Source: Felixounavirus LF82P2. From it: a stretch of 64,000 nt of DNA. Of the stretch, positions 8,308 through 63,585 are shown piece by piece. A program made the translations under genes and the position numbers. Numbering within the stretch: position 1 is the first letter of the stretch; every line of letters begins with the position of its first letter. The stretch lies in the sequence record OZ035741.1. One strand, given 5' to 3'. The notes under the pieces were generated by a model. That model was not told where the DNA came from. It saw only the letters and a list, made by a program, of their open reading frames with translations, and did not search any database.

Positions 8308-8871
8308 TCAACTTAGTTTTGCAAACTCTCCGTGGAGTTTAATAGCAGCTTCACAGTAAGCTTTATGGGCTTCTTCTGGTGTGTCAAACATACCAAGATG
8401 ATAGTTTTTACCTTGTAAACGTATCATTGCTCGAAACCTTTTACTTATCTTCTGTACACCTTTTGGCAACCCAGATGGGGACTTTCTTGACCGATTGCAA
8501 GAGTTTTGTGAAGCTGTACAAACCCTTAAATTCAAGTACCTATTGTCCCAACCGTCCCCATTCTTATGGTCAACCTGTAAGTTTTTATCAGGCAGGTATC
8601 CATCCACATATAGTATTGCTAGACGGTTAGCTTGGTAGCCTTTACCATCAAGCAATAACTGAACAGACTTGTGACCATCTGTGTTTATCCTATAATTTCC
8701 TGCCTTTTTACCTCCAAAACGAGAGTTGAAGTTCTTATTGCCTCGTGATACCGGCTCTCTAAACTTCCAAGTAAAGACCCCTGTTTCGGGGTCGTAGTCC
8801 AATAGCTCCTTAAGACGAATTTCTGTAATCATTTCAACACCATCAATGTACTTCCAACCAGCTCTTACCAA
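8308..8871 (-). CDS. HNH homing endonuclease (AP2-like DNA-binding domain)
   Basis: GVFTW motif, HKNGDGWDNRYLNLRVCTASQN HNH core; paralogous to ORF 18423-18947. Confidence 0.65.
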   Translation of the reverse strand: MVRAGWKYIDGVEMITEIRLKELLDYDPETGVFTWKFREPVSRGNKNFNSRFGGKKAGNYRINTDGHKSVQLLLDGKGYQANRLAILYVDGYLPDKNLQVDHKNGDGWDNRYLNLRVCTASQNSCNRSRKSPSGLPKGVQKISKRFRAMIRLQGKNYHLGMFDTPEEAHKAYCEAAIKLHGEFAKLS

Positions 8872-17422: not shown

Positions 17423-18469
17423 ATGGAGAAGTACACATTAACAAAACTTCCCGATTCAGTTACACATGTTTTTATTGACTCTGACAGCATTGCCTATAAA
17501 GGTGCTTGTGTAGTTGAGAAAGCAAAATATAAATACGTCAATAAACTCACAGCAGAAGAATCTGAACCATTTGACAATGCGAAAGATGCTGCAAGATGGT
17601 TAGCAGACCAGAGAATCCTTGTGGAAGAACTTGGCCTGACATTTGATGAAGATGAATGGGAAAGACAGACTTGGAAAGAAGCTAAGAGTGAAAAAGAAGC
17701 TATCATGGCTACTCAACAGGTGCTTCAGGAATGGCTTAAGATTGTTGGTAAAGAAAGAACTTGGGTAGGCTATTTAACAGAGAAAGGTGTGCATAAACAT
17801 AAAGACATTAAAGGTCTTGAGCACCAATATCAAGGGAACCGTAAAGATGCTGTCACACCAACACACTTAGTCGCTTGTCGTGAATACCTTCTGTCAAGAC
17901 CAGAGTTCAAACTCTTAAAGGGAGGATTCGAAGCCGATTCAATCGTAATTGCTAAAGCTGAAAAGATGGGTAAGAAAGCTGCTCTTATGAGTATTGACAA
18001 AGACCTTCGACAAGCTGAAGGAACTTATTGTATTGATATGACTTATGAAAAGTCACCACTAATTTTTATCGCTGATAATAATGTTGGTGATATCTGGGAT
18101 TGTCCTATCAAATCAAAACCAAAAGCTGCAAAAACAGTTGGTGTAGGTTTTAAATTCTTGTGTTATCAGGCTGTTGCTGGAGATAATGCAGACAACTACT
18201 TCGGCCTAAAAGGTGCTGGTAAAGTAGCTGTGATGAATGCTTTAGATGGTAAAGAGACCTACAAAGAGTGTCTTGACGCTATCTATGAACTCTATGCTAA
18301 AAAAGACTCTTATACCTATGTGTCATGGGATGGACAGACTGTTACAAAGACACCGTTAGAGTTAATGGAACAGCATTTCTTCCTAGCTTATCAAGAGCGA
18401 AATAAATCAGATATTTTTTCATTTGAAAAGTATGGTTGGACTCCAAATGTTGACTCAGCAGATACTTAA
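17423..18469 (+). CDS. 5'-3' exonuclease / flap endonuclease
   Basis: H3TH-like GDNADNYFGLKGAGKVA motif and acidic residues near N-terminus. Confidence 0.55.
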   Translation: MEKYTLTKLPDSVTHVFIDSDSIAYKGACVVEKAKYKYVNKLTAEESEPFDNAKDAARWLADQRILVEELGLTFDEDEWERQTWKEAKSEKEAIMATQQVLQEWLKIVGKERTWVGYLTEKGVHKHKDIKGLEHQYQGNRKDAVTPTHLVACREYLLSRPEFKLLKGGFEADSIVIAKAEKMGKKAALMSIDKDLRQAEGTYCIDMTYEKSPLIFIADNNVGDIWDCPIKSKPKAAKTVGVGFKFLCYQAVAGDNADNYFGLKGAGKVAVMNALDGKETYKECLDAIYELYAKKDSYTYVSWDGQTVTKTPLELMEQHFFLAYQERNKSDIFSFEKYGWTPNVDSADT

Positions 18470-18947
18470 AGAATATCTACACTATGACCCCGAAACAGGG
18501 GTCTTTACGTGGATAAAGAAATCAGCTAACAGAACAGTTATAGGTTCCATTGCAGGTACACCACATAAGCGAGGTTATATTAGGATAAAAATTAAAAGAA
18601 AACCCTATATGGCTCATGATTTAGCAATCCTGTACACAGACGGTTTCCTACCTAACAGAGTAGACCATCGCAACGGTATTACTAATGATAATCGGAGATT
18701 AAATCTAAGGGTTTGCACACAAGCTGAAAACTCTTGGAATAGAAGAACACACTCCAACAACACATCTGGAGTTAAGGGTGTATCTTTCTATAAGGCTAAC
18801 CAAAAATGGAAGGCCAGAGTTATGACACACGGAGTATCTCACTTTCTGGGGTATTTTGACAGTATTGAAGATGCCAAAGATGCAGTCACAAAGAAAAGAG
18901 AAGAACTACATAAAGAGTTTTCAAATCACGGAGAAGCTTATGAATGA
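18423..18947 (+). CDS. HNH homing endonuclease (AP2-like)
   Basis: GVFTW motif; DHRNGITNDNRRLNLRVCTQAEN core; paralog of 8308-8871. Confidence 0.6.
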   Translation: MKSMVGLQMLTQQILKEYLHYDPETGVFTWIKKSANRTVIGSIAGTPHKRGYIRIKIKRKPYMAHDLAILYTDGFLPNRVDHRNGITNDNRRLNLRVCTQAENSWNRRTHSNNTSGVKGVSFYKANQKWKARVMTHGVSHFLGYFDSIEDAKDAVTKKREELHKEFSNHGEAYE

Positions 18948-19441
18948 AGATTAAAGGATTTGGCAATTGCCCCACCTATGGTCATTGGGTATCTTTATGT
19001 GGGGAAGTTGACCCCACTAAACATTTTGGCTTTGTCTATTTAGTACACTGTAAGAAGACTGGACAATATTATATCGGAAAGAAACAGCTTAATAGTGTGA
19101 CTAAAAGAAAAGTTGCTGGCAAGACTCGGAAGAAGGTAGTCACTAAGGAGAGTGATTGGATGACTTATGAGACTTCTTCTGAGTATATCAAAAAAGATAT
19201 TGAAAGCTTTGGAAAAGAATCTTTTGACTTTTATATTATTCAAACCTACTACACGAAAGGTGGTCTAGTTTATGGTGAAGCAAACCTCCAACATAAATTC
19301 GATGTAATGACAAAAAGGATTGACTCTAAGCTCAGACTCTTCTACAATGCCAATATTGCAGCAATTAAGTTTATTACTAAAGAAACTTATGAAGATGCTG
19401 AAAAAAGAATCCATAAGGTAATGAAAGCAAATTGTGCTTGA
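18944..19441 (+). CDS. hypothetical protein
   Basis: 165 aa ORF. Confidence 0.4.
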   Translation: MKIKGFGNCPTYGHWVSLCGEVDPTKHFGFVYLVHCKKTGQYYIGKKQLNSVTKRKVAGKTRKKVVTKESDWMTYETSSEYIKKDIESFGKESFDFYIIQTYYTKGGLVYGEANLQHKFDVMTKRIDSKLRLFYNANIAAIKFITKETYEDAEKRIHKVMKANCA

Positions 19442-25230: not shown

Positions 25231-27375
25231 ATGAACAAAGTACAGATTATTAAAAAGAATGGCTCACTTGAAGAACCTGATATCAAAAAAGTTTTAGCAG
25301 CAGTCACAAAGTCAGCTAACAGAGTTGGTTATAAAGAGCTTCCACCAGATGTTACTCAAGCTCTTGAGTCAGCATTTATGAGGATTCTGGTAAAGTCCAC
25401 TAAACAGAATAATTTGCTAATTTCGGTAAATGATATTCACAGTATTGTTGAGGGTGCTTTGGCAGAAGTCAATCACGAGATTTATGAGTCTTACTCAACA
25501 TATAGAAATTACCGTAAAGAGGTTGCTCAAAATTGGGATGAACTCTACCAGAAGACCAAAGATACACTCTTCTTAGGCGACCGAGAAAACGCTAATTTTG
25601 ACAGCAGTTTAATTTCTACAAAAGGCTCAATTATTCGTGGTTACCTGACTAAAGAAATCTTTAAACAGTACCATTTAACACCAGAGGAACTTGAAGCCAT
25701 TGAAAAAGGATTTATCTATATCCATGATTTAAGAGACCTAATTTTTGGTGGTATCAACTGTTGCCTGTTTGACATTGGTAAAGTCCTGAAAGGTGGCTTT
25801 GAAATGTCTGGCATCGAATATTGTGAACCGAAGTCTGTGCTGTCAGCCTTACAGGTTATTGGTGATGTAGTTCTTTCAGCAACTGCACAGCAATTTGGTG
25901 GCTTTACTTTAGCAGAGATTGATAAGGTACTTGTACCGTATGCTAAGAAGTCTCTACGCTATCATGCTGAGAAAGCAGCATCTTATGGTATTCCTAAAGA
26001 ACATTACCATAATTATGTCATGGAGCAGCTACAGATTGAATTAACTCAAGGTTTTCAGTCACTTGAAATGAAACTGAACACTGTACCTTGCAGCCGTGGT
26101 GATTTCGCATTCACAACTTTAACATTTGGGTTGCTCGACTCAGATATGTCTAATGAAGACAACCGACTACAATACATGATTGCAAGTACTCTCCTAGATG
26201 TTCGTATGAATGGACAAGGTAAGAGCAAGAAGCCTGTTGTATTTCCTAAACTGGTTTATATTTATGACCAGAAGAGACATGATGAAAATATCTGTCAAGG
26301 TCACCTGTACAGTAAAGCTATTGAGTGTTGCTCTAAAGCAATGTATCCAGATTTCTTAAGTGTATCTGGTCATGGTGCTGTAGCAGAGGCTTTTGAGCGT
26401 TCTGGCAAGGTTATTTCGCCGATGGGTTGCCGAGCGTTCTTATCTCCGTATCTTAACGAGAATGGGGAAGAGTTCTACGTTGGTCGTGCTAACATTGGTG
26501 CTGTATCTTTGAACTTACCAATGATTTACCAGTATTCTAAAGAGAATGGTTTAGATTTCTGGAAAGAGCTTGATAAGTACCTAGAAATGATTCGCAGCTT
26601 CCACAAGAAACGCTACGAAATGATTGCTAATATGCCAGCAAGTTCTAACCCTCTTGCATTCACGCAAGGTGGTCTGTACAAAGGGACTAAGAAGCCTACT
26701 GATAAGGTTGGTTGGGATATCGTGAAATCTTTCACAGCCTCTTTTGGGGTTACTGCTCTTGATGAGTTGTCTGTTCTTGCTGAGGGTAAACGACTCCATG
26801 AAGTTGGAAGCTGTAGTTTTGCATATGATGTTCTGGCATACATTAACATGAAAACTGAAGAGTTTAAGAACGAAGATGGCTTCTTGTATGCGGTATATGG
26901 CACTCCAGCAGAGTCATTGTGTGGAACTCAGCTAAAACAGTTCAGAGATATGTTTGGTGTTATTAAAGGCGTTTCTGACAAGGAATACTTTACAAACAGT
27001 TTCCATATGAATGTTGCAGCAAACATCTCACCATTTGAGAAGCAGGACTTAGAAGAGCCATTCTTCCATATCTGTAGAGGTGGCAGAATCCAGTATGTAA
27101 GGGTAGCTAACCCAGAAAACTTACCAGCACTTAAAAGTTGTATTACCAGAGGGATGTTGAAGGGTTTTTATCAGGGACTTAACTTTGACTTAGCAATCTG
27201 TGAACATTGTGGTAACAGACCAAAGGCTGATGTTGAAGAATGTGAGGTTTGTCATTCACACGATATCTCTGTGATTAACAGGGTGTGCGGGTACTTGTCA
27301 TTCACAAAAATTAAAGGTCAGTCTCGAATGAATGACGCTAAGATGGCAGAAATTAAGGATAGGGTTTCTATGTAG
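25231..27375 (+). CDS. nrdD: anaerobic ribonucleoside-triphosphate reductase
   Basis: 714 aa; C-terminal glycyl-radical motif RVCGYL and Cys-rich zinc site (CEHCG..CEVCH). Confidence 0.8.
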   Translation: MNKVQIIKKNGSLEEPDIKKVLAAVTKSANRVGYKELPPDVTQALESAFMRILVKSTKQNNLLISVNDIHSIVEGALAEVNHEIYESYSTYRNYRKEVAQNWDELYQKTKDTLFLGDRENANFDSSLISTKGSIIRGYLTKEIFKQYHLTPEELEAIEKGFIYIHDLRDLIFGGINCCLFDIGKVLKGGFEMSGIEYCEPKSVLSALQVIGDVVLSATAQQFGGFTLAEIDKVLVPYAKKSLRYHAEKAASYGIPKEHYHNYVMEQLQIELTQGFQSLEMKLNTVPCSRGDFAFTTLTFGLLDSDMSNEDNRLQYMIASTLLDVRMNGQGKSKKPVVFPKLVYIYDQKRHDENICQGHLYSKAIECCSKAMYPDFLSVSGHGAVAEAFERSGKVISPMGCRAFLSPYLNENGEEFYVGRANIGAVSLNLPMIYQYSKENGLDFWKELDKYLEMIRSFHKKRYEMIANMPASSNPLAFTQGGLYKGTKKPTDKVGWDIVKSFTASFGVTALDELSVLAEGKRLHEVGSCSFAYDVLAYINMKTEEFKNEDGFLYAVYGTPAESLCGTQLKQFRDMFGVIKGVSDKEYFTNSFHMNVAANISPFEKQDLEEPFFHICRGGRIQYVRVANPENLPALKSCITRGMLKGFYQGLNFDLAICEHCGNRPKADVEECEVCHSHDISVINRVCGYLSFTKIKGQSRMNDAKMAEIKDRVSM

Positions 27376-27382
27376 AATACAA

Positions 27383-27946
27383 ATGAATTACGAACTAATA
27401 TATAATGCAATTATTAAAAAGGCACATTCTGAAAGGGGTGTGCCTCTCACATACTACAAATGTCAAGGTAAGGGTTATGAAAGACACCATATCATACCAG
27501 TATGTCTAGGTGGCGATAAAATTAGTGGAGATAACATTGCTTTACTTACACCTAGAGAGCATTATATAGCTCATAAATTACTGGTTAAGATGTATCCAAA
27601 CAATCATAAGTTATGGTTTGCATGGAGCAGGTTAGCTCATGATGGCCTAGATAGGAAAATATCATCCAGAGACTATGAAAAGGTAAGGGCTTTAAACTCG
27701 AAAGCTCTATCGATTGTGAATAAAGGTAGGGTTTTCACTGAAGAGCATCGAAGACGATTAGGAGAAGTTCAAATAGGTAATACAAAGTCAAAAGGTTGTA
27801 AAAGGTCTATGGAAACAAGGAAGAAGATGTCAGAAGCCGGAAAAAAGCCAAAGAAAAAGAAAACTTGCCCGCATTGTGGCATGACTGGTGGTGCTGGTAA
27901 CATGACTCGATATCATTTTGACAATTGTAAGAAAAAAAAAAAATAA
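27383..27946 (+). CDS. HNH endonuclease
   Basis: ERHHIIPVCLGGDKISGDNIALLTPREHYIAH HNH core; start placed at ATG 27383 just after nrdD stop. Confidence 0.6.
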   Translation: MNYELIYNAIIKKAHSERGVPLTYYKCQGKGYERHHIIPVCLGGDKISGDNIALLTPREHYIAHKLLVKMYPNNHKLWFAWSRLAHDGLDRKISSRDYEKVRALNSKALSIVNKGRVFTEEHRRRLGEVQIGNTKSKGCKRSMETRKKMSEAGKKPKKKKTCPHCGMTGGAGNMTRYHFDNCKKKKK

Positions 27947-27957
27947 CCTTATGTAAA

Positions 27958-27990
27958 ACTTGACAAGGTGGTGTGGGTCTTGATAGGCTT
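27958..27990 (+). promoter_or_regulatory. candidate promoter with conserved ACTTGACAAGGTG box
   Basis: Same 13-mer as at 11613 and 56007. Confidence 0.4.
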
Positions 27991-28018
27991 ACATCACCTT
28001 TTTATTTGGAGTTACATT

Positions 28019-30261: not shown

Positions 30262-30573
30262 ATGAGCAAAGTTTATAACACTCGTAAGATTCAGATTGCA
30301 GTTCTGTGTCAGTTTATGGTTGAGCAACATAACGCACATTATTGTGGTACGGGATTTCTAACCTTTGGTGGCGAACACATCCCATTTAAGAAAGCTGTGA
30401 AGATGTACAACGAATCTCTTGATGGTAGTAAAGAGCTAGAACAGCTTAAACTAACTTACAATAAGAAAGACAAGAAGATTGTATGTCTAAACCACTCTAT
30501 TAAACCTACAAATTACATTATAAGCAACATTGGCGAAGAAGGCTTCCTCAAAGTGTTGAAAATCTCACAGTAA
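30262..30573 (+). CDS. hypothetical protein
   Basis: 103 aa ORF. Confidence 0.35.
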   Translation: MSKVYNTRKIQIAVLCQFMVEQHNAHYCGTGFLTFGGEHIPFKKAVKMYNESLDGSKELEQLKLTYNKKDKKIVCLNHSIKPTNYIISNIGEEGFLKVLKISQ

Positions 30574-30624: not shown

Positions 30625-31140
30625 ATGTATCTGTCAAACCTGAAACGTTCGGCTGCAATGTCAGTTCTAAGACTCAGCTTTGAGGAACGTCAAGAATTTA
30701 TAGACTCCCACAAATATGACCCTTCAAATTCTAATCACATGGTTCTTTGGAATCGTGATAACTTCCGTGAAAGAGCACTTGTCCGTTATTACCCACACTA
30801 CACAATAGATAACCTGTATGAATGGTGTGTTGTGAAGAACACCATTGCAACACTGAACAATCTTTGCAGGTATACGGGTAAGCAAACATTTACACTAGGC
30901 CACCACAAACCTGTTACAAAAGGTGGTGAACATCACTGTGCGAACTGGTTTATCCAAACTAAAGCTGATAACCAGAAGCAAGGAGATAGCCTCCTAAGTA
31001 TCCCTAAGATGACCTATGAAGAGCAAGAGAAATATATCAAAAATAATATGCCAGATGTGCTTGACAACAACTATACAGATTTGGCAATATCTCTCCTGTT
31101 GAAGTTCGAGACAGTTTATAGGGCAACTTATAATGGCTAA
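30625..31140 (+). CDS. HNH endonuclease-like protein
   Basis: GHHKPVTKGGEHHCANWFIQTKADN resembles HNH core. Confidence 0.45.
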   Translation: MYLSNLKRSAAMSVLRLSFEERQEFIDSHKYDPSNSNHMVLWNRDNFRERALVRYYPHYTIDNLYEWCVVKNTIATLNNLCRYTGKQTFTLGHHKPVTKGGEHHCANWFIQTKADNQKQGDSLLSIPKMTYEEQEKYIKNNMPDVLDNNYTDLAISLLLKFETVYRATYNG

Positions 31141-32304: not shown

Positions 32305-32312
32305 AAGTTTAT

Positions 32313-32333
32313 AGGGGCTTAAAAGCCCCATTT
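32313..32333 (+). terminator. rho-independent terminator
   Basis: GGGGCTTAAAAGCCCC followed by ATTTT. Confidence 0.4.
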
Positions 32334-32349
32334 TGAGAGAGATTAAAAG

Positions 32350-58171: not shown

Positions 58172-58248
58172 AAAAGTTTATCTCTGTTTAGCTCAGCTTG
58201 GTAGAGCGTTCCGTTTGGGGCGGTAAGGCCGGAGGTTCAAGTCCTCCA
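58172..58248 (+). tRNA. tRNA-Pro (anticodon TGG)
   Basis: 7 bp acceptor stem, T-loop GGTTCAAGTCC, anticodon loop TTTGGGG, encoded CCA. Confidence 0.7.
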
Positions 58249-58265
58249 ACAGAGACCAAATTAAT

Positions 58266-58343
58266 GTTCCAGTAGACAAAATGGTATAGTCACCACTCTT
58301 TCAAAGTGGACATCTGAGGGTTCAAATCCCTTCTGGAACGCCA
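58266..58343 (+). tRNA. tRNA-Glu (anticodon TTC)
   Basis: Acceptor GTTCCAG/CTGGAAC, anticodon stem CCACT/AGTGG, loop CTTTCAA. Confidence 0.65.
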
Positions 58344-58434
58344 GTTTTGACAGAAGACCAAATACAGCAAACTTAATCTTATTCATCTGAAGGTAAATCG
58401 GACAAAGAAGAGATTTGGTCTGGTCATTAAGAAT

Positions 58435-58511
58435 TGCGGGTATAGAGAAAGGGCGTCTCACATGTCTCATTAGCATGGTATCGGCAGGTTCGACTCCTGC
58501 ACCCGCCTCCA
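58435..58511 (+). tRNA. tRNA-Met (anticodon CAT), atypical (T at position 37, mismatch at pair 1-72)
   Basis: Anticodon stem CATGT/GCATG, loop CTCATTA, T-loop GGTTCGACTCC. Confidence 0.5.
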
Positions 58512-58594
58512 AATTTACAGAAGACCGTTTACAGCAACATTTATTAAATTTTTAGCGGAAAAATTGAAAGATACGGTCTGGTAATACTAAACAT

Positions 58595-58671
58595 GGTTAG
58601 GAAGCACATAAGGTATGTGCGGTCGCCTGTTAAGCGAATGGCACAGGGTTCGAATCCCTGACTAACCGCCA
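58595..58671 (+). tRNA. tRNA-Asn (anticodon GTT)
   Basis: Anticodon loop CTGTTAA; T-loop GGGTTCGAATCCC; CCA encoded. Confidence 0.65.
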
Positions 58672-58740
58672 AATTTAGGAGAGAAGCGATTGCTCACCGA
58701 TTTGTAAGGTGCAAGTCCTTAGCCTGAATAGAAATTAAAT

Positions 58741-58828
58741 GTGTCGTTATCCCGTAGATGGTAGCGGTGGGGACTGTAAATCCCTTGTCATTGAGACTCG
58801 GTAGGTTCGACTCCTACACGGCACACCA
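58741..58828 (+). tRNA. tRNA-Tyr (anticodon GTA), long variable arm
   Basis: Acceptor GTGTCGT/ACGGCAC, anticodon stem GGGGA/TCCCT loop CTGTAAA, 88 nt. Confidence 0.7.
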
Positions 58829-58833
58829 ATAAA

Positions 58834-58911
58834 GGTTATGTAGTTTAATTTGGTTAAAATACTCCCCTGTCACGGGAGATGATGAGGGTTCAAATCCCTT
58901 CGTAACCGCCA
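58834..58911 (+). tRNA. tRNA-Asp (anticodon GTC)
   Basis: Acceptor GGTTATG/CGTAACC, anticodon stem CTCCC/GGGAG loop CTGTCAC. Confidence 0.7.
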
Positions 58912-59081
58912 ATTTTGAGAGGGCTATTTAGCCCCTCCCTTAAAGGGTTCTTACGAGTATCCTTTAAAGGAGCAGAAGACCAAATACAGCAAGTTACTTA
59001 AAATTTCAAGCCAATTTAATTTTGAAAAATTTAAAACTTGGTCTGGCTCAACAAATTTACAGAAGACCGTTTACAGCAAAA

Positions 59082-59178
59082 CTTAAACAATCTATTTCTC
59101 GGTAAAGAAAAGGCGAAGGTTCGATTCCTTCACTCGGCAGATGTCGAGTTGGTGTAATGGTAGCACTTAAGATGATAA
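59082..59178 (+). pseudogene. tRNA halves in permuted order (3' half upstream of 5' half); possible circularly permuted tRNA or rearranged pseudogene
   Basis: 3' part 59082-59139 (CTTAA, variable-arm hairpin, T-arm GAAGG-TTCGATT-CCTTC, acceptor ACTCGGC) then 5' part 59143-59178 (acceptor GTCGAGT, D-arm, TTAAG, loop ATGATAA). Confidence 0.35.
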
Positions 59179-59339
59179 ACAACGGTCTGGTAATTATCTT
59201 TGTAGATAAGTTATTAAGCTTACCTGTGAGTATGCGACCACAAAGGGTGAAAGGGTAAATTCTAGATTTAAACCCAAAAAGGCACATCGCTACAGACCTT
59301 AAGCAAGTCTGGGTAGCTTATCTACAAAGATAATTTAAT

Positions 59340-59415
59340 GGAAGTGTAGCAGAATGGTGATGCGGCAGACTTTTAATCTGACAGGCGATGGGTTCGAATC
59401 CCTCCACTTCTACCA
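59340..59415 (+). tRNA. tRNA-Lys (anticodon TTT)
   Basis: Acceptor GGAAGTG/CACTTCT, anticodon loop CTTTTAA, T-loop GGGTTCGAATCCC. Confidence 0.65.
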
Positions 59416-59419
59416 ATAT

Positions 59420-59496
59420 GGTTCAGTCGCAGATAAGGTAATGCAAGGGTCTCATAAGCCCTATGAATGTGGGTTCGAATCCCATCTGAACCTCCA
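59420..59496 (+). tRNA. tRNA-Met (anticodon CAT), GGG/CCC anticodon stem (initiator-like feature)
   Basis: Anticodon arm AGGGT-CTCATAA-GCCCT; acceptor GGTTCAG/CTGAACC fully paired. Confidence 0.65.
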
Positions 59497-59498
59497 AT

Positions 59499-59573
59499 TG
59501 TGGGTTAGCATAAATGGTAATGCAAACGGCTGATAACCGTTAGAAGAGGGTTCGATACCCTCACCTACAACCA
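59499..59573 (+). tRNA. tRNA-Ile (anticodon GAT)
   Basis: Anticodon arm AACGG-CTGATAA-CCGTT; T-loop GGGTTCGATACCC. Confidence 0.7.
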
Positions 59574-59591
59574 AGTTCAATAAAGTTGTTG

Positions 59592-59620
59592 ACATTGAGA
59601 TGTGACTACTTTATAGTAAC
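59592..59620 (+). promoter_or_regulatory. sigma70-like promoter inside tRNA cluster (TTGACA-17-TATAGT)
   Basis: Consensus -35 and good -10 in spacer after tRNA-Ile. Confidence 0.45.
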
Positions 59621-59821
59621 CTTAGTTTTCGTTGCGTAGCGTCTATTTTGCAAATTTAAAATAAATGCAAACGACAATGTTTTTCTGGCAGTAGCTTGAT
59701 AGGCTAAACACCAGTGAGGTCTTCCAATCCCTCATCAAAGAATTTGGCGTACTCGCCCACGGTATGATTAATAAGGTGGGCATCTTTAAGGGCTTTCTAA
59801 GAGAGTCTTTAAAGATAATTA

Positions 59822-59903
59822 CGGGGCGTATCTCAGCGGTCTTCTAAACCGCCGTTAACCGAGTAAGTGGAGTATGCGGGTTCGAGTCCTGCCGCCTCGA
59901 CCA
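59822..59903 (+). tRNA. atypical tRNA-like gene (possible Arg, anticodon TCT), non-canonical arm arrangement
   Basis: Acceptor CGGGGCG/CGCCTCG plus T-arm GCGGG-TTCGAGT-CCTGC and CCA; perfect hairpin GCGGT-CTTCTAA-ACCGC sits where the D-arm should be. Confidence 0.4.
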
Positions 59904-60046
59904 ATTTAGTTAGCAGATTACTTAGACGACCTAAGCGGGTCTTCCTGTAGGGAGGTGGTCTGTATCTCATGTTTTCCAGAACATGTAAATAATCTGAGAA
60001 GGGGCTTTACAGTGTTGAGATAATACGGTAAGCTTCGAATTATAGT

Positions 60047-60129
60047 ATGGGACGATGTTAAGACTCTAAGGCATGAGCAACGGCCTCCAAAACCGTTTCA
60101 AAGGGGTTCAACTCCTCCGTCCCATGCCA
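60047..60129 (+). tRNA. tRNA-Trp (anticodon CCA), enlarged D region (83 nt)
   Basis: Perfect acceptor ATGGGAC/GTCCCAT, anticodon arm ACGGC-CTCCAAA-ACCGT, T-loop GGGGTTCAACTCC. Confidence 0.5.
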
Positions 60130-60142
60130 AAGTCTTATTAGG

Positions 60143-60230
60143 GGTAGGTAGCGGCTAATGGCAGCCAAACAGTCTTGAAAACTGTTGCCACTGTAGAGAT
60201 ACGGTGAGGGTTCGACTCCTTTACTTACCG
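60143..60230 (+). tRNA. tRNA-Ser (anticodon TGA), long variable arm, CCA not encoded
   Basis: Anticodon arm ACAGT-CTTGAAA-ACTGT; long variable arm; T-loop GGGTTCGACTCC. Confidence 0.65.
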
Positions 60231-60488
60231 CCTAATAAGATTTTTAAAGCCAAGCTTCATTCGGATGTTGCTTTGGTATCCCTCGTGTATTGTCGTACAC
60301 ACTGATAAAACACCTAGTAGGTGTCACGGAGAAGAGATAATATCAAGCTCTCCAAAGGTTCTAGTCACCGGATTAAACAAGACTATGCAAAGACCTTTTA
60401 GGTCTTTTTAGAGGGCTTCTAAGGTTATTACAGCTTGTTGTGGAACCTTGTTGCTTAGGTTCTTAGAAGTTCTCTAAAAAGATTTAAT

Positions 60489-60566
60489 GGGAGATTGACG
60501 GTAATTGGTAAACCTATCTCGCTTAGAACGAGATGTTTGAGGGTTCGAATCCCTTGTCTCCTACCA
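60489..60566 (+). tRNA. tRNA-Leu (anticodon TAG) with short variable loop
   Basis: Anticodon arm TCTCG-CTTAGAA-CGAGA perfect; discriminator A; T-loop GGGTTCGAATCCC. Confidence 0.55.
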
Positions 60567-60573
60567 AATTAAT

Positions 60574-60649
60574 GCAGGTGTAGCAAAATGGTTATGCGGC
60601 TGACTCTTAATCAGTAAGACGATGGGTTCAATTCCCTCCACCTGTACCA
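60574..60649 (+). tRNA. tRNA-Lys (anticodon CTT)
   Basis: Scaffold similar to tRNA-Lys(TTT); anticodon arm GCTGA-CTCTTAA-TCAGT. Confidence 0.55.
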
Positions 60650-60655
60650 AACAAT

Positions 60656-60731
60656 GGGGTCATAGTTTATATGGTTAAAATTCGAGTTTTGCAAACTTGG
60701 GAACTGAGTTCAATTCTCAGTGACTCCACCA
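60656..60731 (+). tRNA. tRNA-Ala (anticodon TGC)
   Basis: Acceptor GGGGTCA/TGACTCC with G3-T70 wobble; anticodon loop TTTGCAA. Confidence 0.65.
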
Positions 60732-60737
60732 ATTAGT

Positions 60738-60812
60738 GCATCCATAGTTTAAACGGGAAAATTACAGTCTTCCAAACTGAGGTTGAGGGTTCGATTCCCT
60801 CTGGATGCTCCA
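60738..60812 (+). tRNA. tRNA-Gly (anticodon TCC)
   Basis: Acceptor GCATCCA/TGGATGC; anticodon arm ACAGT-CTTCCAA-ACTGA. Confidence 0.65.
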
Positions 60813-60826
60813 AATTAAGGTGTGAT

Positions 60827-61240
60827 ATGAAAATATGCAGTACTTGCAGAATACCAAAAGATGAAAGCTTATTCCATAAGAATAAGAACAAGAAAGACGG
60901 TCTTCAAAGTCAATGCAAAGATTGTGCAAGACTCCGTGATGCAAAGAGTTATCAAGCAAATGATAAAAGGAAAGAGGCTATTAAAAGCACTCGTAACTTC
61001 AAGAGAGAGCATAACAAGACTCTAGCTAGAAGGTACAAAGCTTTATGCAAATGTCATATATGTGGTGAGAAAGAACCAGTTGCACTGGATTTACACCATA
61101 CAGACCCTTCCCAGAAAGATTTGAATCCTGCATCACTTTATTCATACTCCACAAAAAGATTAAAAGATGAAATCAGAAAGTGCATTGTCTTGTGCGCTAA
61201 CTGTCACAGAAAAGTACATGCTGGTATCATAAAAGTTTAA
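60827..61240 (+). CDS. HNH endonuclease embedded in tRNA cluster
   Basis: Cys-rich N-terminus and C-terminal DLHHTD..CANCHRKVH HNH motif. Confidence 0.6.
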   Translation: MKICSTCRIPKDESLFHKNKNKKDGLQSQCKDCARLRDAKSYQANDKRKEAIKSTRNFKREHNKTLARRYKALCKCHICGEKEPVALDLHHTDPSQKDLNPASLYSYSTKRLKDEIRKCIVLCANCHRKVHAGIIKV

Positions 61241-61241
61241 T

Positions 61242-61318
61242 GCTGCTTTCGTATAATTGGCTATTACACATCCCTTGTAAGGATGGAAATGCAGGTTCGA
61301 GTCCTGTGAGCAGCACCA
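61242..61318 (+). tRNA. tRNA-Thr (anticodon TGT)
   Basis: Anticodon arm CATCC-CTTGTAA-GGATG; T-loop GGTTCGAGTCC. Confidence 0.7.
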
Positions 61319-61413
61319 ATTCAGAGGTCAAGTGAAAGACCGCTGGTGTCAACTGAAGACCGTAACAAATTCCACGGAGTTGAGTTAGCGGCACAACTTC
61401 AGACCTCTTTCAT

Positions 61414-61488
61414 ACTCGCTTAGTTTATATGGTAAAACATCACCCTTACAAGATGAAGAAAAAGGTTCAAGTCCTTTAGTGAGTACCA
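61414..61488 (+). tRNA. tRNA-Val (anticodon TAC), one mismatch in anticodon stem
   Basis: Acceptor ACTCGCT/AGTGAGT; anticodon arm TCACC-CTTACAA-GATGA (C-A mismatch). Confidence 0.5.
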
Positions 61489-61489
61489 T

Positions 61490-61567
61490 GTTCCAGTATC
61501 CCAATTGGCAGAGGATGCAAGCTCAAACCTTGTACTAGTGACGGTTCGAATCCGTCTTGGAACACCA
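61490..61567 (+). tRNA. tRNA-Leu (anticodon CAA) with short variable loop
   Basis: Anticodon arm GCAAG-CTCAAAC-CTTGT; discriminator A; T-loop GGTTCGAATCC. Confidence 0.55.
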
Positions 61568-61572
61568 ATTTT

Positions 61573-61648
61573 GCAGGATTAGTTCAAATGGATAGAGCAA
61601 CAGTCTACGAAGCTGTTAATAGGGGTTCGAATCCCTTATCCTGCGCCA
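61573..61648 (+). tRNA. tRNA-Arg (anticodon ACG)
   Basis: Acceptor GCAGGAT/ATCCTGC; anticodon arm ACAGT-CTACGAA-GCTGT. Confidence 0.7.
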
Positions 61649-61667
61649 ATTTAAAGAGGCTATTTAG

Positions 61668-62225
61668 ATGAGATATTTGAAGTATGCTTCATGGATTTTC
61701 TTAGCTTTGTTAGAACCATTTGCAGCAATCTTAGCAGTTATCTTAGCACCTTTTGTAGTTCCATTTTACAGTGAGAAGAAAGGACACTTACCTTTCGGAT
61801 TTAGATGGATGGAAACTTATGACAACCCAATTGATGGTGATGAAGGTCACGTTAAAAGATGGGCTAATATTAGATGGATTGGTAAGCTTGGTGTCTATAT
61901 GCAGAGAGTCGGTTGGCTCTGGAGAAACAAAGCTTATAACTTCTCTTACCATGTGTTAGGAAGAGATGTAAAAGATGTTACTAAGTGGAAAGGTAATATC
62001 AACGTAAGTTCTAACCCTGAAGATAATCAGACAGGTTATCTCCTAATGTGGAACAGCAATGCTTGGGGATTATTCGCTTTTATACCATCAATTAAAATCT
62101 TTGGTAAACAGTTCTACTGGAGAATTTATATTGGGTGGAAGCTAAAAAGTGTTGTCCCAGAAGAAAGAGCATTCTCAAGGGAAAGAGTTATGTTGGCATT
62201 CTTTATTCATCCACTAAGAAATTAA
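61668..62225 (+). CDS. hypothetical membrane protein embedded in tRNA cluster
   Basis: 185 aa; hydrophobic N-terminal segment, Trp-rich. Confidence 0.4.
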   Translation: MRYLKYASWIFLALLEPFAAILAVILAPFVVPFYSEKKGHLPFGFRWMETYDNPIDGDEGHVKRWANIRWIGKLGVYMQRVGWLWRNKAYNFSYHVLGRDVKDVTKWKGNINVSSNPEDNQTGYLLMWNSNAWGLFAFIPSIKIFGKQFYWRIYIGWKLKSVVPEERAFSRERVMLAFFIHPLRN

Positions 62226-62233
62226 AGATTTAA

Positions 62234-62309
62234 AGGGGATTAGTTTACAAGGTTAAAACCTCGGTCTTTGAAATCGAAGAAGTTGGTTCAATTCCAACAT
62301 CCCCCGCCA
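62234..62309 (+). tRNA. tRNA-Gln (anticodon TTG)
   Basis: Anticodon arm TCGGT-CTTTGAA-ATCGA; T-loop GGTTCAATTCC; pair 1-72 mismatched. Confidence 0.6.
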
Positions 62310-62311
62310 AT

Positions 62312-62390
62312 GCTCCATTACTCCAATTGGCAGAGAGGCCAGACTTAAAATCTGTGTTATGTATCGGTTCGAATCCGATATGGAGTACCA
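62312..62390 (+). tRNA. tRNA-Leu (anticodon TAA) with intermediate-length variable region
   Basis: Anticodon loop CTTAAAA; discriminator A; D region similar to tRNA at 61490. Confidence 0.5.
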
Positions 62391-62395
62391 AATTT

Positions 62396-62471
62396 AGCGG
62401 TATAGCATAACTGGCAATGCAACAGTCTCTGAAGCTGTCTTATTAAGGTTCAAATCCTTATGCCGCTGCCA
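62396..62471 (+). tRNA. tRNA-Gln (anticodon CTG)
   Basis: Anticodon arm ACAGT-CTCTGAA-GCTGT; T-loop GGTTCAAATCC. Confidence 0.55.
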
Positions 62472-62502
62472 CTTCTAAGGGTTCTTACGAGAGTCCTTAA
62501 AT

Positions 62503-62578
62503 GTGGCCTTATCATAAATGGTAATGACCCATGCTGTGAACATGGTCTATACGGGTTCAAATCCCGTAGGTCACCCCA
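62503..62578 (+). tRNA. tRNA-His (anticodon GTG)
   Basis: Anticodon arm CCATG-CTGTGAA-CATGG; discriminator C. Confidence 0.7.
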
Positions 62579-62583
62579 ATTTA

Positions 62584-62660
62584 TAGTCCAAGTAGCTTAT
62601 ATGGTTAAAGCGCGTGTCTGAAAAACATGAGAAGAGGGTTCAAATCCCACTGGACTACCA
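62584..62660 (+). tRNA. tRNA-Phe (anticodon GAA)
   Basis: Acceptor TAGTCCA/TGGACTA; anticodon loop CTGAAAA. Confidence 0.6.
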
Positions 62661-62676
62661 ATTTCAAAGGTGCTTA

Positions 62677-63411
62677 ATGAAAGAGATGACAGAACAAGGT
62701 AAGGAGATTTTTAATCTCTTAAAAACCGGTAAAGGGTTTTCTAACCCACTTATTACTGGTGCAGCAGTTCTCGGTGGAACCGTAGCTGCTTCTACATCAC
62801 TTGTAAGCTCTATTAGTTCTGTAACAGACCCTACAATGCAGGAGAAACTTGTTGCTGCTGGACTTACAACAGTCCTTCTAAACAGCTTTACAACAAGCCT
62901 TACAAGCACTACAGCAACTACTAAGACCCTGACAGACTACGGTCAAAAATCTATTGATGAGTTTTCATCACGTATGCAGGTAGCAAAGGGATATTCCAAT
63001 GTTATGGGTGCAGCAGGAGAACAAGTTGGTTGTACACCGTTCAGTGGTATTATGGGTGTTGCTACAGAATATGGTCAAAAAGCTATTGATACGATTAACA
63101 GTACACTAGAGAGTGTTAACAATGTATTAAGTGACTTACAAGACGCTATTGACAAGGGTCTTGATACTGTTTCTGATTTAGCTAACCAAGCTGTCAGTAA
63201 GATTAATGAAGGTATCTCAAAGATTACAGCTTATGCAGATGAAGTTGTGCAGATGATTGAAGAAGAATCTGCCCTTATTGCAGAGTACCTTAAAACGAAT
63301 ATCAATGGGTTCTTAGCAGGTATCTTACCAGACTGGTTTGATGATGCCTGTAAAACTGGTGTAATTGACACTATTGCAACACCAGAAATGAAGAACGCAT
63401 TACAGAAATAA
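62677..63411 (+). CDS. hypothetical protein embedded in tRNA cluster
   Basis: Track ORF 62614-63411 overlaps tRNA-Phe; start moved to ATG 62677 after AAAGG RBS; Thr/Ser-rich then helical. Confidence 0.45.
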   Translation: MKEMTEQGKEIFNLLKTGKGFSNPLITGAAVLGGTVAASTSLVSSISSVTDPTMQEKLVAAGLTTVLLNSFTTSLTSTTATTKTLTDYGQKSIDEFSSRMQVAKGYSNVMGAAGEQVGCTPFSGIMGVATEYGQKAIDTINSTLESVNNVLSDLQDAIDKGLDTVSDLANQAVSKINEGISKITAYADEVVQMIEEESALIAEYLKTNINGFLAGILPDWFDDACKTGVIDTIATPEMKNALQK

Positions 63412-63412
63412 T

Positions 63413-63505
63413 GGAAGATTAACCCTAAAAGGTAAGGGAGCAGTTTGCTAAACTGACAGTAGCTGAGAAATCGGTGTACCAGTTCAAGTCTGGTATCTTC
63501 CTCCA
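63413..63505 (+). tRNA. tRNA-Ser (anticodon GCT), long variable arm
   Basis: Perfect acceptor GGAAGAT/ATCTTCC; anticodon loop TTGCTAA; 93 nt. Confidence 0.65.
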
Positions 63506-63509
63506 ATTT

Positions 63510-63585
63510 GAATCCGTGACAGAAATGGCTATGTGCCTGTCTGCAAAACAGGTTTATAAGGGTTCGAGTCCCTTCGGATTCTCCA
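63510..63585 (+). tRNA. tRNA-Cys (anticodon GCA)
   Basis: Acceptor GAATCCG/CGGATTC; anticodon arm CCTGT-CTGCAAA-ACAGG. Confidence 0.7.

Follow-up and report, generated by a model that had tools for sequence, protein, structure and literature searches.

The closest studied system is MobE of phage T4, a free-standing HNH endonuclease with its gene in the nrdA-nrdB interval (Wilson and Edgell 2009, PMC2790892). The mobE gene is promoterless and is read from upstream, with a weak hairpin terminator 27 nt past its AUG, and the enzyme nicks the neighbouring nrd gene of phages lacking the endonuclease (PMC2790892). The Seg enzymes of T4 are free-standing nucleases of the GIY-YIG type, for which marker exclusion, co-conversion of short flanks and target polymorphisms in the carrier genome have been described (Edgell et al. 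2010, PMC2988022). A paper centred on ICP1 and T4 places homing endonuclease genes (HEGs) near essential replication and nucleotide-metabolism genes and describes them as limits within which genetic exchange takes place (Barth, Dunham and Seed 2023, PMC10448857); the likeness to the phage studied here lies in HEGs situated beside essential genes. Within the Felix O1 group, Felix O1 itself was reported to be free of introns and to encode six HNH endonucleases (Whichard et al. 2010, PMC3185647), a statement taken up again in a genus comparison of 2021 (PMC8300805).

The DNA analysed here, referred to as the window, is a stretch of 64,000 nucleotides from Felixounavirus LF82P2 (OZ035741.1). Its DNA polymerase (pol) region matches 261 phage records in GenBank, nearly all of them Felixounavirus, with the best match to Felixounavirus LF82P1 (98.7%); records of this genus, the Felix O1-like myoviruses, comprise phages of Escherichia, Salmonella, Shigella and Citrobacter. 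The gene order is the same as in phage ekra, with genes for thymidylate synthase, ligase, DNA polymerase, primase/helicase, 5'-3' exonuclease, nrdA/B, nrdD, NAD salvage and rIIA/B followed by a tRNA cluster, in which ARAGORN predicts 25 tRNAs (58182-63585). One further weak tRNA match (59822-59900, plus strand; Rfam, 31.7 bits) is absent from the ARAGORN list; for comparison, relatives have an annotated tRNA-Arg between tRNA-Ile and tRNA-Ser/Leu.

A preliminary description of this DNA had proposed five HNH-family genes, termed here H1 to H5, as free-standing homing endonucleases located by conserved genes. All five open reading frames are present where it placed them, and for H1, H2, H3 and H5 the HNH assignment is borne out by protein family models and by the catalytic H...N...H/N motif, which is intact in their translations, whereas H4 is weakly HNH-like. 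A site-by-site test was performed using about 30 related IMG/VR contigs per site, with the flanks and genes compared with the window, and full-length alleles were counted among the approximately 261 related GenBank records. At the H1, H2, H3 and H5 sites the relatives were found to be empty, to contain the same allele or to contain another allele, whereas H4 is present in essentially every relative, and the homing interpretation was therefore kept for the four polymorphic sites and withdrawn for H4. Judged from these comparisons, H1, H2, H3 and H5 are very probably free-standing HNH homing endonuclease genes, and H4 belongs to the fixed gene set of the genus. A Pfam scan of 10 further variable or unannotated ORFs of the window for missed endonucleases gave no match.

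The four genes form cassettes of 420-560 bp, which lie in, or at the edge of, a short spacer after a conserved gene and destroy no neighbouring gene: pol is followed by H1, the gene for the 5'-3' exonuclease by H2, nrdD by H3 and a tRNA-Gly gene by H5. All four are already annotated in GenBank as HNH, MobE-like or homing endonucleases, and finding them is in itself routine; the abundance of HNH homing endonuclease genes in phages of the Felix O1 type is known. Copies of H1, H2 and H3 at 99-100% identity occur in other Felixounavirus genomes, and in Felix O1 the exonuclease site is likewise occupied by an HNH gene. The best matches of the window alleles are found in LF82P1 for H1 and H5, in SeKF_63 for H2 and in NRG857CP1 for H3, so that the window unites alleles seen in different relatives. 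These sites mark mosaic parts of the genome that are unsuitable for phylogeny; the authors of the BASEL collection steered clear of 'regions infested with homing endonucleases' in their larger phage genomes.

A gene reminiscent of T4 mobE is H3 (27383-27946, plus strand), which encodes a MobE-like HNH and NUMOD3 homing endonuclease and is named MobE-like in the GenBank annotation of relatives. It follows the nrdD stop codon (27373-27375) and precedes the terminator hairpin of nrdD (27965-28000), which places it within the nrdD transcription unit. Like mobE, it adjoins a ribonucleotide reductase gene within the transcription unit of that gene, and it contains a stem-loop about 37 nt past its AUG, compared with 27 nt in mobE and +39 for the hairpin of H1 and H2 described below. 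It differs in that the neighbour is nrdD and not nrdA or nrdB, and the likeness is one of annotation and of the PHROG 655 assignment ('homing endonuclease', 1e-55). NUMOD3 scores above the Pfam cut-off and no Pfam HNH model does so for H3; the motif is of the HH...N...H form (ERHHIIP..GDNIALLTPREHYIAH). The insertion at the nrdD stop codon is flanked by the imperfect repeat TATGTA(G/A).

Of 29 IMG/VR loci, 6 contain H3, as do 51 of about 261 GenBank records. Carriers and non-carriers have the same nrdD identity to the window except in the last approximately 100 nt of the gene, where carriers are 96-100% and non-carriers 68-76% identical. This H3-linked haplotype (27288-27375, plus strand) starts just past the RVCGY glycyl-radical motif and reads GYLSF..Q..M..K in all six carriers and in two of the 22 non-carriers, while the other 20 non-carriers read GYLGW..E..I..R. 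The tract 27288-27375 is a candidate target and immunity tract for H3. In one contig (L034, 12153-12711) the reading frame of the H3 allele is broken by a 1-nt insertion in a run of G, possibly a sequencing error; this copy is apparently decaying.

A comparable situation is seen at the exonuclease site. H2 (18447-18947, plus strand) is a free-standing HNH_3 and AP2 homing endonuclease gene, the ATG of which overlaps the exonuclease ORF (17423-18469) by 23 nt in another frame. It had been described as lying just downstream of a flap endonuclease gene; the adjacency is correct, with the upstream gene annotated as 5'-3' exonuclease and overlapped by these 23 nt. The H2 5' end rewrites the last approximately 16 exonuclease codons into a different tail, and its stop codon overlaps the ATG of a downstream GIY-YIG gene. 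The H2 product matches Pfam HNH_3 (PF13392) at 31.1 bits (cut-off 24.8) and PHROG 99 at 2e-71, with a sub-threshold match to AP2, and has the catalytic motif VDHRNG..DNRRLNLR..EN. Four of the IMG/VR loci contain the same or an 84% identical allele, eight contain other alleles and 16 are empty with a spacer of 34 nt; the full-length allele occurs in 27 of about 261 GenBank records.

The 3' end of the exonuclease gene varies with the occupancy of this site. All 12 occupied loci, irrespective of the allele, encode ...QHFFLAYQER, as do two of 14 empty loci, while the remaining 12 empty genomes encode ...QHFW(I/V)AYQER. The codons concerned (18380-18385, plus strand), F-L in the window and W-I or W-V in most empty genomes, are a candidate target or immunity position of the H2-site endonucleases. 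Identity to the window in the last 50 nt of the exonuclease flank is 0.99 for loci with the same allele and 0.75 for empty loci. The alternative alleles are accompanied by longer divergent tracts, which in the exonuclease gene extend over about 550 nt and in the next gene over about 150 nt.

In nrdD as in the exonuclease gene, the flank haplotypes linked to occupancy do not extend beyond the last 50-100 nt. They would fit co-conversion together with target-site immunity, being correlations among related genomes that kinship can inflate. Since at least two empty alleles of the 'resistant' type occur at the H2 and at the H3 site, the linkage is not absolute. If these enzymes act in the manner of T4 MobE and the Seg nucleases, each would nick or cut the endonuclease-less allele near the insertion point during co-infection, recombinational repair would then copy the cassette with a short flank from the carrier genome, and the carrier would be shielded by sequence variants in the end of the adjacent gene. 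The cassettes resemble those of the Seg enzymes in being small, free-standing and situated in intergenic spacers of conserved regions, tRNA clusters included; unlike the Seg enzymes, the products of H1, H2, H3 and H5 belong to the HNH family, and the SegE-like GIY-YIG gene of the window is fixed and not polymorphic.

At the third site, H1 (8308-8832, minus strand) is a free-standing HNH_3 and AP2 homing endonuclease gene in the spacer that separates the pol stop codon (8843-8845) from the following gene. In its longest form the ORF begins at TTG 8871, and a 29-nt overlap with the 3' end of pol had been noted on that basis. The most likely start from the alignment is ATG 8832, 10 nt past the pol stop; because this ATG aligns with the start of H2, the overlap is regarded as an artefact of taking the longest ORF. 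The product matches Pfam HNH_3 (PF13392) at 46.9 bits (cut-off 24.8) and PHROG 99 at 1e-59, AP2 again being sub-threshold, and its catalytic motif reads VDHKNG..DNRYLNLR..QN. Comparison of junctions indicates that H1 is inserted directly behind the pol stop codon, leaving the C-terminus of the polymerase unaltered. Among the IMG/VR loci, two contain the same allele, 15 another HNH allele (truncated in three of them) and 12 no HNH gene; four of these 12 (L005, L006, L007 and L016) are precisely empty and about 535 bp shorter. The full-length H1 allele is found in 27 of about 261 GenBank records. No clean occupancy-linked variant was found in the 3' end of pol beyond the last few bases and the stop-codon region. 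The truncated pol-site copies, cut to 92 aa in three contigs (L001, L024 and L025), are apparently decaying.

The pol site and the exonuclease site are both occupied by series of diverged alleles. At least six HNH_3 and AP2 lineages, 44-83% identical, were found at the pol site, and at least four, 55-84% identical, at the exonuclease site, and within each series the termini are near-identical (...TPEEAHKAYCEAAIKLHGEFAKLS at the pol site; MLTQQ.LKEYLHYDPETGVFTW... and ...KKREELHKEFSNHGEAYE at the exonuclease site). The alleles of one site are only 34-44% identical to those of the other. The GVFTW motif common to H1 and H2, from which a recently duplicated family had been deduced, is real; the recent duplication was rejected, the two proteins being 42% identical and falling into site-specific allele clades. 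The site-specific series of diverged alleles point instead to long-standing turnover at each site. It is possible, though doubtful, that the pol and exonuclease sites are arenas of 'allele swap', with lineages of 35-60% mutual identity replacing one another at a site, and not sites of simple presence or absence of an insertion. If this were the case, allele series with private flank variants would represent competition of endonuclease against endonuclease.

H1 and H2, like every allele at the two sites, also have in common a perfect 18-nt GC hairpin, GACCCCGAAACAGGGGTC, located 39 nt into each gene (8776-8793, minus strand, in H1; 18486-18503, plus strand, in H2, where it lies 17 nt past the exonuclease stop and has a fold z-score of -3.65). 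It encodes the peptide DPETGV using rare codons, the stem codons CCC, GGG and GTC having frequencies of 4%, 7% and 10% in the genome. In all 28 hairpin copies of related loci, representing 10 distinct 36-nt variants, the stem is unchanged; the codons beside the hairpin vary synonymously, and inside it only the loop changes, in a protein-altering manner. The same set of codons was found in none of 58 unrelated viral homologues that encode the same YDPETGV peptide. The hairpin does recur in HNH genes of some unrelated enterobacterial phages; the 36-nt segment occurs in 212 phage records, including HNH genes of Klebsiella phages and of small Salmonella phages. It was also seen in one unrelated IMG/VR contig, with only 21 nt common with H1. 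In its 83-nt context the H1 hairpin is not more stable than shuffled sequences (z -0.49), and the argument for the hairpin is therefore drawn from its codons and its conservation, not from folding energy.

H3 has a different structure at a similar place, the 11-bp stem-loop 37 nt into the gene (27420-27445, plus strand), which is kept in the 72% identical allele of contig L045; the differences, one strengthening and one weakening change, are uninformative as to covariation. By analogy with mobE, the simplest reading of the H1 and H2 hairpin would be a weak internal terminator or attenuator. The endonuclease genes would probably be transcribed from the upstream gene, with the internal hairpins holding their level low, as in T4 mobE. 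In the allele-swap reading, the hairpin would act in cis within the cassette, possibly as a mobE-like terminator or attenuator or as a signal for processing or recombination.

Relatives of the window have group I introns, with or without ORFs of the HNH or EndoVII type, in pol (codon 724/725) and in nrdD (about 400-403). It could be proposed on these grounds that H1, H2, H3 and H5 are parts of group I introns or inteins of the adjacent genes. No Rfam group I intron was detected in the window, its pol (909 aa) and nrdD (714 aa) genes are uninterrupted, the ORFs of H1, H3 and H5 start past the neighbour's stop codon and that of H2 in another frame, and the empty sites present no exon rearrangement. 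An association with introns or inteins was rejected on these observations, and we consider it extremely improbable.

A related proposal is 'collaborative homing', in which H1 and H3 would target the intron-insertion sites of pol and nrdD and travel with the introns of the relatives. The intron-bearing genes of the relatives are exactly those followed by HNH genes in the window, and T4 MobE acts in trans to mobilise an intron next to it (PMC2790892). However, H3 accompanies 4 of the 10 nrdD loci that contain an intron and 2 of the 19 that lack one, the states of the pol site are mixed, the window has both endonucleases and no intron, and the occupancy-linked variants map to the 3' ends of pol-type neighbours such as nrdD, a long way from where the introns are inserted. 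As no consistent co-occurrence was found, this proposal was likewise set aside as very unlikely, and the four genes continue to be regarded as free-standing elements. As to the introns themselves, they are located in pol of contigs L003 and L009 (corresponding to about 9400 in the window) and in nrdD of L053 and L057 (about 26430). Forms without an ORF pass the Rfam gathering cut-off (RF00028), which the longer forms do not; the latter would be the same introns containing a 160-aa ORF of the EndoVII/HNH type in pol or a 154-aa ORF of the HNH type in nrdD.

SegB of T4 is encoded in a tRNA cluster, and the F-Tfl nickases of T5 are encoded in a tRNA region. H5 (60827-61240, plus strand) is a zinc-finger HNH endonuclease gene that lies inside the tRNA cluster, as had been stated, between tRNA-Gly (60738-60812) and tRNA-Thr (61242-61318). 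Its cassette is 422 bp long and comprises its own AAGGTG ribosome-binding site and the ORF; in genomes without H5, the gap between tRNA-Gly and tRNA-Thr is 6-7 nt. The product matches PHROG 2255 at 2e-40 and Pfam HNH at 17.4, under the cut-off of 21.4, and its motif CxxC...DLHH...CxxCH, with two CxxC pairs, is intact (DLHH..N..CANCHRKVH). H5 is present in 1 of 26 IMG/VR loci and in 14 of about 261 GenBank records, and phage ekra has neither H5 nor H3. Among the 14 records is Felix O1, the ORF47 of which is 97% identical to H5 at the DNA level and occupies the same position between tRNA-Gly and tRNA-Thr. The tRNA-Thr(tgt) of the genus exists in two forms that differ in the anticodon-stem sequence; type 1, the form found in the window (61242-61318), is present in all seven further H5 carriers, compared with 13 of 25 non-carriers, and one tRNA-Thr variant is possibly the target of H5. 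The predicted targets are the 3' end of nrdD past the glycyl-radical motif, the last exonuclease codons and, possibly, one variant of tRNA-Thr.

H4 (30625-31140, plus strand; probable start ATG 30658) is a conserved core gene with no assigned function and a distant likeness to the HNH motif. All 29 IMG/VR loci contain it at the same place, as do 240-254 of about 261 GenBank records, and no presence/absence polymorphism was detected at the locus in this material. Fixation at one site was the finding that the preliminary description had named as contrary to homing, and H4 is therefore not considered a homing element. It has no Pfam match; its best PHROG is 3500 ('unknown function'), followed by a weak match to the HNH PHROG 2214 (2e-6), and the search of NCBIfam gave a sub-threshold match to the IscB HNH region (E 0.03). 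A sequence search of the PDB returned only spurious low-complexity matches to protein A repeats. The family is limited to Felix-O1-like phages and is characterised by the invariant block GHHxPxxxGGxHHxxNWxIQxxxDNQxQ, at which the AF2 model (pLDDT 77) predicts two strands (78-82, 97-101) followed by a helix (102-110). A Foldseek search of this model against the PDB gave nothing significant, the top matches being HNH domains of Cas9 and Gme (E 0.26-0.6). H4 is a core gene of the genus without sign of mobility, and an HNH-like fold is possible. In one metagenomic protein of 259 aa (P0001), H4 is fused with the product of the ORF upstream of it (30262-30573). In phage ekra the label 'putative HNH homing endonuclease' is attached to this upstream ORF and not to H4.

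A second fixed gene of a nuclease family is situated directly downstream of H2 and was absent from the preliminary description. It encodes a SegE-like GIY-YIG domain protein (18944-19441, plus strand; PF19835, 4.9e-28) and was found in 33 of 33 and 29 of 29 related loci with a median identity of 98%. Judging by this distribution, it is apparently a non-mobile core gene. It is labelled 'GIY-YIG homing endonuclease' in phage ekra and 'NAD synthetase' in some records. The fixed H4 and the fixed GIY-YIG gene are now set apart from the truly mobile genes.

These two fixed genes bear on a further alternative, that the nucleases of the window are domesticated or non-selfish enzymes with a role for the phage, for example in the degradation of host or competitor DNA or in repair, and that their patchy occurrence reflects the turnover of accessory genes. 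H4 is fixed in the genus, and the fixation of the GIY-YIG gene indicates that nuclease-family genes can become core genes here. Homing endonucleases can confer competitive benefits, and such a benefit may also be counted in favour of this alternative (see also PMC13096335, on SegB). However, for H1, H2, H3 and H5 the insertions are precise and coincide with the stop codon of a conserved gene, one site is home to several diverged alleles, a truncated copy exists, and short flank haplotypes are tightly linked to occupancy. Since this combination is a hallmark of homing and not of random gain and loss of accessory genes, domestication of these four genes appears unlikely, and homing is the preferred reading for them.

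One more locus of the window is an empty homing endonuclease site. The genes for ribose-phosphate pyrophosphokinase and nicotinamide phosphoribosyltransferase are 45 nt apart in the window (32305-32349), and in phage ekra a 492-bp HNH gene is located between the same two genes.
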